Source of the DNA: a virus
Virus record (IMG/VR): IMGVR_UViG_3300031466_000074
Strand: one strand, 5' to 3'
DNA: 64,000 nt
In this document: piece by piece, positions 22,894 through 55,891 of the stretch
Layout: each line of letters starts with the position of its first letter
Numbering within the stretch: position 1 is the stretch's first letter
Made by a program: the position numbers and the translations under genes
The notes under the pieces: model-generated
Told to the model about the DNA's origin: nothing
Database searches by the model: none
What the model saw: only the letters and a program-made list of their open reading frames with translations

Positions 22894-24186
22894 CTAGAGT
22901 AAAGACAATTGAAAGGAGTCCAAAACTGTTTCCCGTGTCCTACCCCATGATGAGTACATCCGTGCAAAAAGACTCGTACTCGAAATGACGTCGAGAAGCG
23001 ATTCTTTCGTATGTTGCTCTAACTTCCCATTACGAACCGCATAGCAAACCGGATCGATTTGATCCATACAAGTAACTGCAACGGAAAGATAAAACTTGAA
23101 GGACTCACCCTGGAGCTTATCTAAAAGCACATAAAAATTGAGCTGATCGAGATCCAAATACCCAAAACGCAAAGAACCTTGCCACTCATTTGGAAGATTC
23201 GTCGGATCATGAATACCCCGATACGGTTTCTCGGGAAGCTCCGTGTCCATCCTCCCTGCACCATGACGTGTAAGATAAGCTCGGGTCACATAACAAACTT
23301 CCATAATCACCCCCGTCTCATTAGACGCAACTGGATATTGAAGTGAACGCAACCAACCTTCTGAACCTGCGATAATCTTGAGAACATTGATCAACCCGGT
23401 TTTACTATGAGTAATATGCGGTGCAAACTCCTCCAAGTCCTGATCCAGCAACAAACCTTGAGCGCCTTCAAAAATAAGTGCATCGAAATGTTCGAAAAGC
23501 GCTTTGTCCGTCGTGATTAAGACATGATCAAGGAAGAACTGAACATCATCCAAAAAGTTATTGAACAAAAGATTGACGTCCAACGAAAGAAACTCATGAT
23601 GAAGTTTCGGATACCCCAACTCCGATAACCGCATGGGCATATAGTCATAGACCAAGAATTTCAACTTGGCGCGAAGCTCATTGTGATTCAACAGATCACG
23701 AACGCGCAAATGCACCTTGGTAAGCGGATGCTCATTCCGAACTACCGTTTCACTGATCCCCAAACCACAACTTCCATGCCGAGCATCACCCCTTGCTCGC
23801 TCAACTGCTTGATTTATCCATACATCCACTGGAGTAGTGACAAGAGAGTCAGGATGCACATAAATAAGTGGGATTTTTCCTTTAAGTTTCTTACAAAGAA
23901 CCCTATGCTCCTTCACGAACATTGTCGGATTCGAGATGAAAAACTGACTCAAATAGGTTGGTACCCCTTGCAACGTACCGGAACCGAAATGACTGAAGAC
24001 ATGCTCCAACCCTTCTGGAGTTACGACCGTATGTGCCGCTTGCGCTCCACCATTAAATCGGATGACCAACGGTTTACGTCCTTCATCAAGAGCTTGCGAA
24101 ACAAAATAGTCCGTCATCAAACCCTTACCTTCATCCCCAAAATTCGCTCCAATAACCACTCTAACTATCTTATCGAAATTCCCCAT
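22894..24186 (-). CDS. divergent adenylosuccinate synthetase (PurA)-like protein
   Basis: GANFGDEGKG, RFNGGAQAAHT, FEGAQGLLLD, YLTRHGAG; TTGR substrate loop absent. Confidence 0.85.
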   Translation of the reverse strand: MGNFDKIVRVVIGANFGDEGKGLMTDYFVSQALDEGRKPLVIRFNGGAQAAHTVVTPEGLEHVFSHFGSGTLQGVPTYLSQFFISNPTMFVKEHRVLCKKLKGKIPLIYVHPDSLVTTPVDVWINQAVERARGDARHGSCGLGISETVVRNEHPLTKVHLRVRDLLNHNELRAKLKFLVYDYMPMRLSELGYPKLHHEFLSLDVNLLFNNFLDDVQFFLDHVLITTDKALFEHFDALIFEGAQGLLLDQDLEEFAPHITHSKTGLINVLKIIAGSEGWLRSLQYPVASNETGVIMEVCYVTRAYLTRHGAGRMDTELPEKPYRGIHDPTNLPNEWQGSLRFGYLDLDQLNFYVLLDKLQGESFKFYLSVAVTCMDQIDPVCYAVRNGKLEQHTKESLLDVISSTSLFARMYSSWGRTRETVLDSFQLSLL

Positions 24187-26953: not shown

Positions 26954-28588
26954 TCAAGTGGTAGGTTTAGATGAATTAGACGGTAACCCAAACTCCAACA
27001 AAGTGTCGCCCACCGCACCAAGCAGTTGGTGACTCCATGTTTGCACCGCACTAACATTCGAATCAAAAGTCTTATTAAAGGAAGCCAAGTTCTCCAAAGT
27101 GGCAACCATCTCTTGCGTCGAAGCAGAACTTTGTTGTAAAGAGGAACTAAACTCCCCGAGGGAGCCTTCAATGACCTTAGTGTTGTCATGGATTTGTGTA
27201 AGATGTACCATCATATTTTGCGTCGAGCTGTCGACCCCATGCACAGCGTCCACTATGGAACTGAAGGACTCGTCGACAACCTCAACGCTCTTCCGAATCT
27301 GATCAAAGACCGCTTTACCCGATTCAAGAGCTTTCGTATTCTTCTCCGCACCCGCACAAAGGGTAACCGTCGTCTGCTGAACCGCTTTCGCCAGATCCGA
27401 AGACTGTTTCGAGAGCTTCCTTATCTCAGCGGCGATTACAGAAAAACCTTTCCCATGCTCCCCAGCGCGGGCAGACTCAATGCTGGCGTTAAGGGAAAGG
27501 ATATTCGTTGCTTGCGCCACCTGTTGGATCGCCTCATTGTGCTTGATGATTTGATTAAGCTTCTCGACCATTTCCCGATACCCCTCTTGAAAGGTGAGGG
27601 TGAACGCGTGGAAGGCTTTAAGATGTCCGATAAATGCGCTAAGTTGTTCCCGACCTTTATTCGAAAGCTCCGCCGTTGCATTGGAGTTCTCTGCGATGGA
27701 TGCCAACTCCTGTGTAAAATGATCCAATGACTGTACCGTTTGTTGCAGAGACGCATAAATGTCAGACACACTTGACGCTTGATGCTCAATCGCCTTTCCA
27801 ACTTCGCGGGATGCTACAACCAACCCATCCAAAGACTGTGACTGCATGTTACTCTGCTTACCTAAATCGAGCGCAAAAGCATTCAACCCTTTGATAGTGT
27901 CTACAATAACATCCCGCTGTGACGTAAGCTGATTCGACAAACGAACCGTCTCATCATAAATAGTATTGGCACTACGCTGGTAGTAACGATGCGCGAAAAC
28001 TGAGTCAAACAACAAGAACGAAACAAGGATGTAGAAGAAAATGTAGACCAGCGTAGAAACCAAGTCACCATCATTACCCCCTGGGATTCCTAAGAGCGCA
28101 TGAAGACCATTGGAGCGGTAGAGGAAGACAAGCAGGAGGATAGACGTGAGGAAGTTGGTCATCAAGTAAACTCGATATCGTCTATGCATAACTCCCATCA
28201 TAAGGATGCATAAAATCGAAAAATAGTCAATGACGCTGGGTAAGAATACAAAACGGAAAAGTAAAGTCAAAGAAACTGTAAAGAGTGCAACGTAAGGAAT
28301 CAAGTGAATTGAACGAGACTTACGCTTTGAGCCAAGATTCAACCAAAAAGCAAAAACAAACGCCAACAGAAAATCCAAGACAGTGAACGCTACCAAAAGA
28401 CCTTTAACATTCGACTGTGGGTAGGCATCTGTATAATAAAACAACACCAAATAGAGATTGAGAACCGCAAGTAAAGCCAGCCCGATAAGTAAAGAAATGC
28501 TTCGGGTCTGGAAGTCCAGTTGCTCCAAAGTCTCAATGTCCTTTACCTGCGAGTACCGACCAAACCACGTGCGTTCTCGAAGCCCCAC
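26954..28588 (-). CDS. methyl-accepting chemotaxis protein
   Basis: Multi-TM N-terminus; TNILSLNASIESARAGEHGKGFSVIAAEIRKLS signalling hairpin. Confidence 0.93.
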   Translation of the reverse strand: MGLRERTWFGRYSQVKDIETLEQLDFQTRSISLLIGLALLAVLNLYLVLFYYTDAYPQSNVKGLLVAFTVLDFLLAFVFAFWLNLGSKRKSRSIHLIPYVALFTVSLTLLFRFVFLPSVIDYFSILCILMMGVMHRRYRVYLMTNFLTSILLLVFLYRSNGLHALLGIPGGNDGDLVSTLVYIFFYILVSFLLFDSVFAHRYYQRSANTIYDETVRLSNQLTSQRDVIVDTIKGLNAFALDLGKQSNMQSQSLDGLVVASREVGKAIEHQASSVSDIYASLQQTVQSLDHFTQELASIAENSNATAELSNKGREQLSAFIGHLKAFHAFTLTFQEGYREMVEKLNQIIKHNEAIQQVAQATNILSLNASIESARAGEHGKGFSVIAAEIRKLSKQSSDLAKAVQQTTVTLCAGAEKNTKALESGKAVFDQIRKSVEVVDESFSSIVDAVHGVDSSTQNMMVHLTQIHDNTKVIEGSLGEFSSSLQQSSASTQEMVATLENLASFNKTFDSNVSAVQTWSHQLLGAVGDTLLEFGLPSNSSKPTT

Positions 28589-28790
28589 AACAAAACCTCC
28601 TTTACAAAACACAAAAATAAAGAATCAAAACCTAAACAAATTAACACCAGTTCCAACTCGAAAGAAAATAAAACATAAAAAGTGAGGAAAGTACAGAAAA
28701 GAGCGAAGAAATTATGTAGAATTTCCATTTCTCTGAAAACACAAAAGAGGGGTTCATGTGTCTGAACCCCTCTTGGATTATCAATAACCG

Positions 28791-29512: not shown

Positions 29513-30064
29513 CTATCGAGGTCTCTTTACCCACTCATCAAATTCAAGAAGAAAATTGACTTCCTCTTCACTGAATATCACCGCACCGCTCTCTTCCTCG
29601 GTCGGAACAAGCGAAGCATAATGGTAGGCTTGCCGCGCCGCAAAAAGTAAGCTATCACCAAAAGTCTTAAGCGTTAAGATATTATTCGAGCGCGGAATGA
29701 GATGTTGAAGCTCAAGAACCATAAACTCATAACGCCGCCATTTAATAAGAGGACTGCCACGATAGTTCGGAAGGTTCGTGCGCTTAGAAAGCAAAGGATC
29801 GTTTTCTTCCACCGACCACCCAAACTGCGAAACCAACTCAACATTACCCCCCCCCATAAACCGCCGACACGCGTGTACCAAAAGCTGTCCTGCCGAGCGC
29901 AAGTCTTCATACGCATCCAAACGAGGTATAGACTCCCGCAAAATACGGATACGCTCAGATTGAATTTCCGCTTTTGTAAGACTCGGTTGAGGGAAAGAAG
30001 GCTTCACCTTCCTAGCACCGCGACGTGAATTAGGAAGACGAGCGAATAAAGTTTGCCGATTCAA
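29513..30064 (-). CDS. hypothetical protein
   Basis: 183-aa ORF with upstream promoter-like element. Confidence 0.55.
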   Translation of the reverse strand: MNRQTLFARLPNSRRGARKVKPSFPQPSLTKAEIQSERIRILRESIPRLDAYEDLRSAGQLLVHACRRFMGGGNVELVSQFGWSVEENDPLLSKRTNLPNYRGSPLIKWRRYEFMVLELQHLIPRSNNILTLKTFGDSLLFAARQAYHYASLVPTEEESGAVIFSEEEVNFLLEFDEWVKRPR

Positions 30065-39299: not shown

Positions 39300-39372
39300 G
39301 AAAATCACCTCAAATGCAAGAATACCCAATATAGAAACCAGTACCGGAAAAAGTTCAAAAACAACAAATAAA

Positions 39373-39411
39373 AAGTCTCTGCAGTCGAGATTCCTCAAAC
39401 TGCAGAGACTT
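39373..39411 (-). terminator. intrinsic terminator of ncRNA operon
   Basis: AAGTCTCTGCAG/CTGCAGAGACTT followed by U tract. Confidence 0.8.
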
Positions 39412-39423
39412 CTGTGGGGTTGA

Positions 39424-39494
39424 TGTTGGCTTTAGGGGTCGACCCAAGCCGCAACTTCGAAAGGCTTTCGCGTCCCGAAGTCCGACAGCCAACA
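39424..39494 (-). ncRNA. 71-nt stem-loop RNA directly 3' of tmRNA
   Basis: TGTTGGCT/AGCCAACA closing stem; inner hairpin with GC-GAAA-GC loop. Confidence 0.5.
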
Positions 39495-40010
39495 TGGTGG
39501 AGTCGAGGGGATTCGAACCCCTGTCCGAACAACCTTCCTCAAGACCATTTATTGAGCGTAGCCTAGCACATTGGAAGGAGCCACCCATAAGTCGAATACC
39601 AAGGTCTTCTGATACTCGCTCTCTCCCAAGGGGAGAAATTAATGTGAGCCGTCTTGTCGGAGTCTTCGCTCCGAAAATCGCCGCATACCCCCAATCGCGT
39701 TACGCGAGACACTCACCGCCCGTACTTCGCGGGATACGGAACGCCCGTTTTGGTTCCCTTTCTCGGTATACCTCTCCGATAAGACCGCCACGTTCTTATC
39801 GGAAACCCCTAGTCAGTCTTTCCTGTCCGTCAGCCTTATCCTCGATCCGCAGGAGTTGGTAGGCGACCTCTCCGTTTAGGAGTAGCCGGATACGCTATCA
39901 GGCTACAGCGAGTTGTTCGTTGCCATTTAATTGGCGTTGCCCCGTAAGGTGGTTGCATACCGCTCAAAAGTCTTGCACCCAGTCGCCCGTCGAACCCAAA
40001 AGACGACCCC
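39495..40010 (-). ncRNA. ssrA: tmRNA (516 nt), tag (A)GNEQLAVA
   Basis: GGGGTCG/CGACTCC-ACCA with G3-U; T-arm; helix CAAGAC..TTGAGCG/CGCTCAA..GTCTTG; TTAAAT GGC AAC GAA CAA CTC GCT GTA GCC TGA TAG. Confidence 0.93.
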
Positions 40011-40018
40011 AAAACGGA

Positions 40019-40131
40019 GTCCGGGCTTGGAAGACATTTCCGCCGTCCTTGGAAGGAATCCACGCCTTCAGCCGTGCAGACTTGCCCTCAACAGAGGGGG
40101 TATTCCGCAAAACCGCTACACAAGCCCGGAC
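40019..40131 (-). ncRNA. 113-nt structured RNA candidate
   Basis: Perfect 11-bp closing helix GTCCGGGCTTG/CAAGCCCGGAC plus inner hairpins. Confidence 0.55.
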
Positions 40132-40133
40132 AT

Positions 40134-40194
40134 CGGCGCACCTTGGTGGATTCGAACCACCGACCACCCAAAGGGGTGCATCACCAATAGGTGC
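40134..40194 (-). ncRNA. 61-nt minimal tRNA-like element
   Basis: GCACCT/AGGTGC acceptor, GGTGG-TTCGAAT-CCACC T-arm, CACCC-CTTT-GGGTG arm, no D stem. Confidence 0.65.
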
Positions 40195-40415
40195 ATGATA
40201 GTGGGAGCGGCGCACCCGAAACAGCACCCAGTCCGCGCCAAACTGCGCCGACTCATTACGGCTACCGCGCCACCTCCCGCCGTCCGCCGGAGGACAAAGG
40301 GGAACTCTCCGAAACGCCGCCCTGCGCGTCAGAACCTGCCCCCGTCAGCAGTCCAACCCAACCGAGGTAAGCCACTCTACCTGCCGACCCGCCGCCCTCC
40401 AGCGGAACTGATGTC

Positions 40416-40444
40416 AGTATAACTCGGAAGTCGACGACGGTCAA
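40416..40444 (-). promoter_or_regulatory. sigmaA-type promoter of ncRNA/tmRNA operon
   Basis: TTGACC-17 bp-TATACT. Confidence 0.8.
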
Positions 40445-40493
40445 CACCTAGTTCGGAAGAAAATTAAAAAGTTTCGTAAAAATTTTCTAGGTG

Positions 40494-41531
40494 TCAAACG
40501 AAAGAAGCCCGAAACTCAAAGAAGTCGCGCTTGCCCGCCGCGTTTACCCCACTTTGATACGCCCCGTGGACTTGCACCGGGTACAGCAACGGTGCATAAG
40601 GGTTATGTGGGTAAAGGAAGTGTCCATCTCGAATTACCGAGTACAACGCTTCAACAATACCCCTCGTCGTCTTATACCGCTGATCCAACGGACGACGAAT
40701 GGCTTCAAAGACGTGTGAACCTTGCGTCGTTTTCAGACCGTAGTGGATGTTCCCATCCTTGATTACCTGAACCAACACAAAATCAAGCGGGTCACGCAAA
40801 TCATGCGTCGGACAAACCGTAAAAGTCAAACGCAACTCATTGTTGAGGAACGCCCGGTCAAAGAAAGACATCGTAAGGTTGCGGTAGTTAAACTGCAAGT
40901 TCTTCAACTCGCACTTATGGCTAAGGTTGGGGTTTGACGGATTATAATGCTTACTCCTTACCCCCGCTTCCTGTTCCATAGCGATCTTGGACGTAGACTT
41001 GGGAAGAACCTCATAAGTAGATTTGAAAACCAAGCCGTTGACCACCCAAACGTCGCTAAGATCTGGGTAGCCATTCTTTTCACCGCAGACAATGAAGTCT
41101 CCGTCGCCATGCTCTACCCCCGGTCGATTCGCTAGCAAAACGTCGCCCCACGCCGTCTTGACCTCAACCATCGCGCTCTTCGAAACCTGCATCGCATAAC
41201 AAGGGTTACCGGGCTTGGTCTTAACACGAAGCGGTCGATCCGGGATGAAATCCGCAGGAGTGAGCGGAGAACCATCCGGCTTAGTATAGGTCTTGCACAC
41301 CTTCTCCATCGGAGCAACCCACAACTCACCAACCGTACCCTTCAGAATGACGTCATTTTCCTTGGTGTTGTACGTCGCTCCTTCCAACACATTCGTTACC
41401 TGACGAGGACGGGAAGGCTTCATCACTTCAATGAAATACGCCTTCTTTTGTACCCGGTCGCAGGAGTTGAGAAAAATCTCCTTCAGCCTGTCATCGAACT
41501 TCATCACCTTACCTTGCGCCATAGCCGTCAT
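40494..41531 (-). CDS. PGDYG-like duplicated domain protein
   Basis: DVILKGTVGELW...KTY and GDFIVCG...WVVNGLVFKSTYE repeats. Confidence 0.55.
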   Translation of the reverse strand: MTAMAQGKVMKFDDRLKEIFLNSCDRVQKKAYFIEVMKPSRPRQVTNVLEGATYNTKENDVILKGTVGELWVAPMEKVCKTYTKPDGSPLTPADFIPDRPLRVKTKPGNPCYAMQVSKSAMVEVKTAWGDVLLANRPGVEHGDGDFIVCGEKNGYPDLSDVWVVNGLVFKSTYEVLPKSTSKIAMEQEAGVRSKHYNPSNPNLSHKCELKNLQFNYRNLTMSFFDRAFLNNELRLTFTVCPTHDLRDPLDFVLVQVIKDGNIHYGLKTTQGSHVFEAIRRPLDQRYKTTRGIVEALYSVIRDGHFLYPHNPYAPLLYPVQVHGAYQSGVNAAGKRDFFEFRASFV

Positions 41532-41739
41532 GATTCTAACCTCCTTTATTTATTTTTGTACCCAACCCAATCGCTCTCGTTGAACCTGTACCTCGCGCTC
41601 CATCACATTCACCTCACAGCGCGATTATACCAAAAATATAAGTTAGTCAGAAAATAAAAGGAACGACTTTACACAACGTACATAAACAGTCATAAAAAAA
41701 GAAGGCGGGATTACCCCGCCTCCTGCTTGATGTGCGAAT

Positions 41740-54391: not shown

Positions 54392-55891
54392 CTAGACCTG
54401 CACCGCGTCGTAGATCGGATCATTCAGCGTCTTCATCATCGCTTCATACGGCGTCATACCGATGGCGTCCAGTACCGACTTGAAGACCGAAGGCGAATGA
54501 CCAGAAGCCATTTGAACCCCCGGAATCATCGAGTGGGTTTGAAACGTGTTGTGTCGCGAATTGACATTCCAGTACACGATATTCGGAAGCTCGAAACCGT
54601 GCTTGCGGAACTCCTCCGACACCACACTGTGGAACGTCCGGTAGTTGCCACCACTCGTCTGAGCATCAAACTGACCGTCCGTGATGATCACGACCGCCTT
54701 CGGCAAATCCTCTTGCGTGAGATTGTGCTGAAGCGCCGTTTGCAGAAGAAGCTCGAACGCCCTGAAGATATCCGTGTTATCCACGATAACCGGGAAGTCC
54801 GAGAGCTTGTCCTTCAACGTTTCACCTTGAATCGTGACCAAACGCGGTTCGCGGCTGAACGTCATGAAGGTATTGTGGAATACCCCCTTATTCCGTTCCG
54901 CGAAATACAGCGCCAGCCCGATGGACGTGTACAACGGCAAGCCATCGAACGTCAGCATAGAACCGGACGTGTCCGCCATGACCAAAACATTGAACTCGCC
55001 GTCCACGTAGTTCGGAAGGCTCCGCCACTGCGCTTCGATAGTCTCGTCCCAATGCGGAACAACAAGATTCATTGGTACATACCAGCTTGCATGCTCACGA
55101 ACAATCGACAACCCCGCATTCCGAAGCAGATCGTAAGGATACAGCGTACCCGCATTGATCTTCTTCTCGCCGGAAGCAACCGCTTCAAGATAAGACTTGA
55201 AGCGCTCCGAGTCACGGTTGCCGAACGCCTTGCGGTACCGCAACATCGCGCGGGAAGGAACGTGTTCATAATTGATTTCGCTCCAACGCCCTTGCGACAT
55301 CTTGACCTCCACCACGTCCATATAACGACAGAGCGCCGACAACATCTTGTCGTACCCCCGATAGGACAGTCCGAGACGACGCGCCAGACGGCGACCAACC
55401 CGCGATACCTTGGCGCGAGGTAACCACTTCGCAAGAAGTGAAACCGATTCGCCCTTGTCCATCGCACCCTTGTCGAGCTGAAGCTGGCTGGCGATCAGTT
55501 CAAACATATCACCTTCGAGCGCCGTATGCTCCAGCGACAACACGTCCTTCCACCGACCGTAGAACGGCAGAAGCGGAAGATTCTTGCGAAGAACATCCGG
55601 GTGGGCGTCCGCCAAGTAGCGGTAAATGGTCAACGGAACAGCCCGCTCACCCAAGCCTCCGCGAATGTTCCGAGCGTAGAACAACGCCTTCATAGCGTAG
55701 AGAGGATTCTCTTCAAACGCCAATCGGAACTGCGTGACGATGTCCTCCGACGAACGTTCGCGAAGCGCACCAGCCGTTGCGTAAAAGTCCAACAGGCGGG
55801 AACCCGTCGACTTAAGCGCATAGGCTCCGTTGTCCGTATAGGTGGAGTTGTCCTGCACCTGACGAACCGCGTTGATGAAGTTTTGCGACAT
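54392..55891 (-). CDS. TROVE/Ro60-like helical domain + vWA protein (DUF2828-like)
   Basis: TDNGA..LKSTG..LLDF, ARNIRGGLGER, YGRWKD, LLAKWLPR, W..INYEHVPSRAM; MIDAS DTSGSM, ITDGQFD, VYWNV. Confidence 0.85.
   Translation of the reverse strand: MSQNFINAVRQVQDNSTYTDNGAYALKSTGSRLLDFYATAGALRERSSEDIVTQFRLAFEENPLYAMKALFYARNIRGGLGERAVPLTIYRYLADAHPDVLRKNLPLLPFYGRWKDVLSLEHTALEGDMFELIASQLQLDKGAMDKGESVSLLAKWLPRAKVSRVGRRLARRLGLSYRGYDKMLSALCRYMDVVEVKMSQGRWSEINYEHVPSRAMLRYRKAFGNRDSERFKSYLEAVASGEKKINAGTLYPYDLLRNAGLSIVREHASWYVPMNLVVPHWDETIEAQWRSLPNYVDGEFNVLVMADTSGSMLTFDGLPLYTSIGLALYFAERNKGVFHNTFMTFSREPRLVTIQGETLKDKLSDFPVIVDNTDIFRAFELLLQTALQHNLTQEDLPKAVVIITDGQFDAQTSGGNYRTFHSVVSEEFRKHGFELPNIVYWNVNSRHNTFQTHSMIPGVQMASGHSPSVFKSVLDAIGMTPYEAMMKTLNDPIYDAVQV

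Follow-up and report, generated by a model that had tools for sequence, protein, structure and literature searches.

A predicted RNA-only operon organized around an oversized tmRNA in a large phage-like element

What does a phage-like element keep in a kilobase (kb) of DNA that appears to encode no protein? The question is raised by positions 39373–40444 of the IMG/VR virus record IMGVR_UViG_3300031466_000074, of which we analysed a stretch of 64,000 nucleotides (nt), here called the window. An initial annotation, made from the letters of the window, had read this segment as an operon of five non-coding RNAs built around a transfer-messenger RNA (tmRNA), with tRNA-like elements marking the cutting sites on a single precursor. 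Our analysis favours, with a probability of roughly 55%, a model in which the segment is one protein-free unit whose precursor would be cut by ribonuclease (RNase) P, with the tmRNA as the main product and an accompanying 113-nt RNA that would be functional. The following features make up the unit, listed in the direction of transcription:

40416–40444, (-): sigma-A-type (sigma-70-type) promoter, TTGACC-17-TATACT (motif match, class enrichment, strain invariance)
40283–40406, (-): leader domain A, a G-rich branched fold with a closing helix of ~15 base pairs (bp) (minimum-energy fold)
40203–40278, (-): leader domain B, a G-rich long hairpin with the closing helix GGGAG.GUGGCGC / GCGCCGCUCCC (minimum-energy fold)
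40134–40194, (-): 61-nt tRNA-like element (fold, T arm, zero substitutions in six lineages)
40019–40131, (-): 113-nt three-way-junction RNA (perfect 11-bp closing helix, two arms, z -2.56)
39495–40010, (-): tmRNA, 516 nt (Rfam RF00023, 71.2 bits, gathering score 47, E 1e-25)
39424–39494, (-): 71-nt branched hairpin with an apical GAAA tetraloop (z -3.66)
39373–39411, (-): intrinsic terminator, a ~19-bp stem followed by the T run UUUUUAUUU (-27.4 kcal/mol, z -6.96)

The layout is one of one promoter, one terminator, tightly packed modules and zero proteins. On the minus strand the order is promoter, G-rich leader, 61-nt tRNA-like element, 113-nt RNA, tmRNA, 3′ hairpin and terminator, and neighbouring modules are spaced 0–8 nt apart. 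The promoter lies 400 nt upstream of the tmRNA, and its position at 40444–40416 puts the likely transcription start near 40409 (-); the approximately 400 nt upstream of the tmRNA are G+C-rich and hold no conserved reading frame. Taken singly, TTGACC-17-TATACT occurs at chance level in the window (2 found, 2.0 expected). As a class, TTGAC-N18-TANNNT sites number 11 against 1.9 expected, a count that none of 100 shuffles reached, and all 11 lie on the minus strand, which is the gene strand (4696, 5071, 14352, 20607, 21207, 26929, 28923, 31917, 40416, 42602 and 58604). Other members of the class are found upstream of both tRNA clusters and of other suspected RNA genes, so that the class could serve for locating further RNA genes and for mapping the transcription units of the whole element; many members also have GAC(T) in the spacer and GTTA at -10. 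Both promoter hexamers at the operon are unchanged in 7 strain sequences, with two variable positions in the spacer. Together with the stability of the terminator, the enrichment of this class bears out the claim that a promoter and a terminator enclose about 1 kb.

We found no further promoter-like site between the 40416–40444 promoter and the 39373–39411 terminator, so by that criterion the tmRNA lacks its own promoter. A single promoter of a defined class and the lack of an internal promoter-like site support the earlier reading of the segment as one transcription unit, whose modules would be co-transcribed from the promoter at 40444–40416. When the whole transcript (1037 nt) was folded, the 113-nt RNA, the 3′ hairpin and the terminator formed separate modules, and no leader–trailer pairs around the tmRNA, in the style of ribosomal RNA processing stems, were predicted.

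The centre of this unit is a tmRNA, as the initial annotation had proposed. The match to RF00023 is above the gathering score and spans the full length of the model (positions 1–374 of 374). In the tRNA-like domain, 5′ GGGGUCG pairs with 3′ CGACUCC-ACCA, with G3 opposite U70 and the CCA encoded, and the T arm is GGGG-UUCGAAU-CCCC. The tag frame, GGC AAC GAA CAA CUC GCU GUA GCC UGA UAG, encodes GNEQLAVA followed by two stops, and the resume codon of the model is aligned with it. ARAGORN reported no tmRNA at 39495–40010, likely because of the length of 516 nt, which includes a 147-nt insertion in the 3′ pseudoknot region. The tag encoded here (39896–39922) ends in ...LAVA, and the Paenibacillus tags that we saw end in ...ALAA, ...LLAA or ...AFAA; the tag of phage G ends in ...LQVA (...ELQVA) (PMC12484599). 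Host proteases may read phage tags differently.

Strain variants were collected by exact-protein look-ups in public assemblies, which yielded six lineages that are 97–100% identical. A homologue search in related elements for covariation, as the initial annotation had envisaged, returned strain variants only and no distant relative. Counted in the four full-length lineages, segregating sites per 100 nt were as follows:

tmRNA core: 0.28
tRNA-like element: 0
leader: 2.4
113-nt RNA: 3.5
3′ hairpin: 2.8
tmRNA insertion: 5.8
two neighbouring genes: 2.2–2.7
another intergenic region: 9.1

The tmRNA insertion (within 39620–39773) thus varies faster than the core (5.8 versus 0.28), and a hairpin in it carries a compensatory U:A to C:G change at 39636/39622 among strains. 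In a 9-kb comparison with strain L005, positions 39774–40574, leader included, are among the most conserved stretches. The lineage L067/L068 has lost most of the upstream 345-aa gene (window 40653–41718) and has kept the promoter and the whole RNA operon. Three lineages each carry a separate leader indel, namely a 2-nt insertion, a 1-nt insertion and a 12-nt deletion, and gene callers give differing open reading frames in the leader region from strain to strain. These frame-shifting strain indels rule out coding potential in the 5′ part, so that the earlier statement that the segment holds no credible open reading frame is confirmed for its 5′ ~200 nt.

The pattern of change within the 113-nt RNA supports structure-preserving selection on it. 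The RNA was found, as annotated, at 40131–40019 with its perfect 11-bp closing helix, and contains a hypervariable inner patch at 40034–40093. In the lineage L067/L068, these 60 nt carry 18 substitutions, compared with about one expected from the lineage background. In a consensus structure of the RNA, all 148 of 148 pair cells were standard, compared with 31–54% when the partners were slid. This consensus was derived partly from the same strain sequences as those tested, and we therefore repeated the test on a fold obtained from the window sequence alone, in which 3 of 39 pairs were broken compared with a mean of 8.7 for 18 randomly placed changes (P = 0.0026). Four pairs change type in the 8-bp helix 40062–40069/40030–40037, with a double compensatory change of U:A to C:G at 40062/40037. 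The other changes of this lineage lie in loops and in one 3-nt bulge with four alleles (GGA, UCU, UUU, and UUU in a shifted register).

A diversity-generating retroelement was rejected as the source of the hypervariable patch, as the changes are not adenine-specific. The tract at 40034–40093 looks like the product of recombination with a more distant allele; if this is the case, diverged homologues of the same architecture would exist that have so far not been sampled. Recombination tracts of this kind seem to be common in the strain population. A mosaic tract at 41500–41699 differs from strain L005 at 30 positions in 200 nt, with a mean of about 2%. A number of assemblies are interrupted within or close to the leader and the 113-nt RNA, that of L072 about 5 nt before the variable patch, and these breaks could reflect strain diversity.

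The 61-nt module upstream of the 113-nt RNA had been described as a mini-tRNA; its tRNA-like fold stands, and its identity as a tRNA does not. The element has an acceptor stem of 6 bp plus an A.A mismatch, a single-stranded linker containing GG, a 5-bp hairpin capped by a 4-nt loop, a canonical T arm (GGUGG-UUCGAAU-CCACC) and the 3′ end G-CCG, and it has 0 substitutions across the six strain lineages. ARAGORN found no tRNA at 40134–40194, and no model of the tRNA clan of Rfam scored above its threshold for the same positions (best model tRNA-Sec, 15.8 bits against a gathering score of 47). A true tRNA is ruled out by the missing D arm and by the 4-nt loop in place of an anticodon loop.

The two outermost RNA modules vary in a less telling manner. 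The ~200-nt leader (40406–40203) is as G-rich as had been noted, with 43% G and 68% G+C. The closing helix GGGCGGCG/CGCCGCTC that had been assigned to it is possible, and is not preferred in the minimum-energy fold, which has two domains. In domain A, strain substitutions preserve the pairs in part, and the 1–2-nt leader indels are located in a junction. Structural constraint on the leader is weak, and the G-rich segment may be only a leader. The 71-nt stem-loop was likewise found where it had been predicted, at 39494–39424, beginning at the base right after the CCA of the tmRNA. Two of its strain substitutions keep a pair and one breaks a pair, a faint indication that its fold may be constrained.

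In the model that we favour, the sigma-A-type promoter would drive a precursor of ~1.03 kb. The substrate features read by RNase P are an acceptor stem, a T arm and the elbow formed by the T and D regions. Because such a unit is found both in the tRNA-like element and in the tmRNA, cleavage would be expected 5′ of G40194 and G40010; host RNase P would thus cut at 40194/40195 and 40010/40011, releasing the leader and a block of the tRNA-like element with the 113-nt RNA. In Bacillus, C74 and C75 inhibit RNase Z. Since the G-CCG end should disfavour this enzyme, the boundary between the tRNA-like element and the 113-nt RNA may be left uncut, giving one RNA of ~180 nt. The 113-nt RNA would persist because its 11-bp G+C-rich closing helix would block 3′ exonucleases, and it would have a function of its own, its scaffold being conserved and its loops evolving fast. 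The tmRNA would be the main product; it would be charged with alanine (G3:U70), would tag stalled peptides with AGNEQLAVA and would work with SmpB. This SmpB would most simply be the host's, as tblastn with Paenibacillus SmpB found no SmpB-like frame in the 64-kb window. We infer co-transcription, every cleavage, the stability of the RNAs and all functions other than the tmRNA's, and the final products would number three to five RNAs.

The alternative that survives best, which we consider possible if somewhat unlikely, is that the 400 nt upstream and the 120 nt downstream of the tmRNA are external transcribed spacers that aid the folding of this long RNA, determine its ends and shield the precursor, and are then degraded without having a function of their own. 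The behaviour of the leader suits such spacers and weighs against our favoured model. In fold energy it does not clearly surpass shuffled sequences (z -1.8; 13 of 200 equal it), and it tolerates indels and pair-breaking changes: five of its ten distinct substitutions keep a pair, three break one and two are unpaired (8 in stems). The 12-nt deletion in strain L072 removes part of the middle helix of domain B and leaves its closing helix and apical hairpin. In variability, the leader, the 113-nt RNA and the 3′ hairpin are about on a par with the neighbouring genes, the flanks have no Rfam match and no paralogues in the window, and host-type ssrA loci contain nothing similar, their likeness to the phage operon being limited to the tmRNA ends. 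However, same-type bacterial tmRNAs mature without such flanks, the tRNA-like element is invariant, and the pairs of the 113-nt RNA survive 18 substitutions, a preservation that a disposable spacer would not need.

Several further observations count against the favoured model. All of the comparative evidence comes from strains that are 97–100% identical, and no distant relative of the operon was found in any collection searched. In the 1037-nt fold, possible pairing partners of the leader include the tRNA-like element and the tmRNA. No more than 6 pairs plus A.A make up the acceptor stem of the tRNA-like element, which ends in CCG rather than CCA. Moreover, there is no terminator between the upstream gene and the unit, which makes read-through transcripts possible as well.

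A second alternative, for which we see little likelihood, is that the tRNA-like element is joined to the 113-nt RNA in a single Y-RNA-like molecule of ~180 nt, bound by a TROVE-like protein or by another RNA-quality-control factor. The two modules are only 2–5 nt apart, and RNase Z should be disfavoured by the CC that follows the discriminator base. Y RNAs of bacteria and phages bear tRNA-like domains (PMC4201824), and a TROVE-like protein is encoded 14 kb away:

54392–55891: TROVE-like protein (DUF2828/DUF7788; phrog_850, E 1e-120)

That gene, however, has its own adjacent upstream RNA array with a different motif, and an 11-mer common to the operon and the TROVE leader is no more than chance would give (E 0.82). 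At E <= 10, Rfam listed neither Y RNA nor YrlA, and the Ro60-binding motif GNCGAAN0-1G is absent from 39373–40409, for which reason the YrlA reading itself was rejected. Less probable still is the idea that the upstream part derives from a second tmRNA or from tRNA genes and has decayed, being carried along without function: tandem tmRNA genes about 130 nt apart do occur in a bacterial contig of the same project, two Paenibacillus genomes have duplicated tmRNA 5′ motifs about 480 nt apart, and the T arm of the tRNA-like element resembles those of tmRNA and tRNAs, but no likeness to tmRNA extends beyond the T loop and T arm (on which ground a tandem-tmRNA remnant was rejected), the stems are intact, the tRNA-like element is invariant and the changes in the 113-nt RNA preserve structure.

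Returning to the RNase P-cut unit, we asked whether its parts have relatives elsewhere. The accompanying RNAs match no described family: Rfam (4227 models, E <= 10), run on 40005–40420 and 39373–39494, gave nothing beyond chance level and no 6S, SRP, RNase P RNA, raiA, ROOL or GOLLD, which agrees with the initial remark that the flanking RNAs could not be assigned to known families. At the DNA level, neither the phage collection nor the plasmid collection contained a match, so that no cultured phage or plasmid in them is related, and the flanking proteins had no relatives among viral contigs. DNA pattern searches of viral contigs gave no relevant match, the single match being a bacterial smpB-ssrA locus at a prophage edge, and the metagenome pattern of a T loop, 120–150 nt and a tmRNA 5′ end returned 47 loci, all unrelated. 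The genes around the nearest homologue of the upstream protein (46% identity) are different ones and leave no space for the operon, and the relatives of the downstream protein are near-identical only. Searches for paralogues in the window returned T-loop matches only; a 16-nt match at 29809–29824 lies inside an open reading frame. Antisense pairing of any module to host-type tmRNA was not better than in shuffles (z -0.5 to +1.2).

The closest precedent is the tRNA operon of phage T4 with RNAC and RNAD, which are excised by host tRNA-processing enzymes. The T4 tRNA region yields these small stable RNAs (species 1 and 2), the role of which is unknown (PMC3014915; PMC9697503). Both loci are protein-free phage units in which small structured RNAs are made together with tRNA-type RNAs. 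In contrast to T4, the main product here is a tmRNA rather than tRNAs, the sole tRNA-type spacer element is a 61-nt non-decoding mimic, the RNAs have no sequence relation to RNAC and RNAD, and the processing of the precursor is predicted from the layout.

Genes for tmRNA are known in huge phages (PMC7162821; phage G, PMC12484599), and the element described here resembles these phages in having a large genome, many tRNAs and its own tmRNA (PMC7162821). It differs in that its tmRNA is 516 nt long with a 147-nt insertion, is missed by the usual tool ARAGORN, has no promoter of its own and stands behind a 400-nt structured leader that holds further RNAs; such a leader is not mentioned in PMC7162821 or PMC12484599. 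For the putative processing role of the tRNA-like element, there are two parallels. In MALAT1-mascRNA, a tRNA-like element acts as a processing signal (PMC8457004), and similarly a ~60-nt tRNA-like element within a longer non-coding transcript would here recruit RNase P and define the ends of its neighbours. The mascRNA system is eukaryotic and non-homologous, and in our case the putative processing element is upstream of the main product. A mycobacterial tRNA-like Y RNA of the YrlA type, whose acceptor-like stem has 7 bp, is a substrate of RNase P and has CCA added to it (PMC4201824). YrlA is likewise a non-decoding RNA with a T arm, a D-loop-like GG and an acceptor-like stem; unlike YrlA, the element here is not beside a Ro60-like gene (the nearest being 14 kb off), lacks GNCGAAN0-1G and has no covariance-model match.

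The novelty lies in a combination of three things: a complete tmRNA that is oversized and lacks its own promoter, a tRNA mimic that is invariant and non-decoding, and a three-way-junction RNA that is constrained and has hypervariable loops. Annotations of phage tmRNAs usually give single genes detected by ARAGORN, and here one that was missed is embedded in a compact RNA-only operon. 'Empty' kilobase gaps beside phage tRNA or tmRNA genes should therefore be treated as RNA operons. Provided that the extra RNAs are stable, they would offer new candidates for the means by which large phages handle host translation, tRNA-targeting defences or RNA quality control. At its most speculative, and we think it rather improbable, the 113-nt RNA, perhaps with the tRNA-like element, might found a new class of phage RNA, in which a fixed scaffold with fast-changing loops would act as a specificity determinant in a phage–host conflict over translation or ribosome rescue, for example as a decoy or guide for a host factor directed at tRNA or tmRNA. 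The same genome contains many odd tRNA-like genes and a Ro60-like protein.

We call the element phage-like, with a size of about 273 kb. Near-identical contigs of 272,853 and 273,538 bp are present in public metagenomes, all large open reading frames lie on one strand, and there are 18–19 tRNA genes. Some window proteins match PHROG families, including the TROVE-like 'RNA-binding protein' phrog_850. The tmRNA pre-tag motif combined with the tmRNA 5′ end was found in the genomes of 54 species, all of them Paenibacillaceae (Paenibacillus, Thermobacillus and Cohnella). This confinement suggests that the tmRNA is of the Paenibacillus type and that the host is probably a member of the same family. 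One match of the pre-tag motif is a Paenibacillus genome bin (contig accession ERZ795039), with an accession number near that of the 273-kb contig, ERZ795070.

Duplicated tmRNA sequences were seen in several bacterial loci. A bacterial contig (JGI contig Ga0310834_102201, L020:8053–8910) has two full-length tandem tmRNA genes, 127 nt apart, with the different tags GKQQQPSLALAA and GKQQQPALLAA; the second copy ends in ...CUCCAUAUG, without CCA. In Paenibacillus tianmuensis (L086) and P. taihuensis (L100), the tmRNA 5′/pre-tag motif occurs twice, about 480 nt apart, as judged from the motif alone. Three other Paenibacillus genomes (L120, L081 and L114) have up to four copies of the tmRNA 3′ end within a few kb. 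Repeated tmRNA 3′ ends are the usual scar of islands or prophages that integrated successively into ssrA.

In some strains, an IS200/IS605-type element (Y1 transposase and TnpB) lies directly downstream of the terminator hairpin of the operon, and the 273-kb ENA contig (ERZ795070) is broken at this spot. The insertion and two further protein genes of the window are located as follows:

L007:145–1519, L069:4714–6038 and L008/L066: IS200/IS605-type insertion, with the insertion point at about window 39328–39365
22894–24186: divergent adenylosuccinate-synthetase-like protein
26954–28612: protein with a methyl-accepting chemotaxis signalling domain

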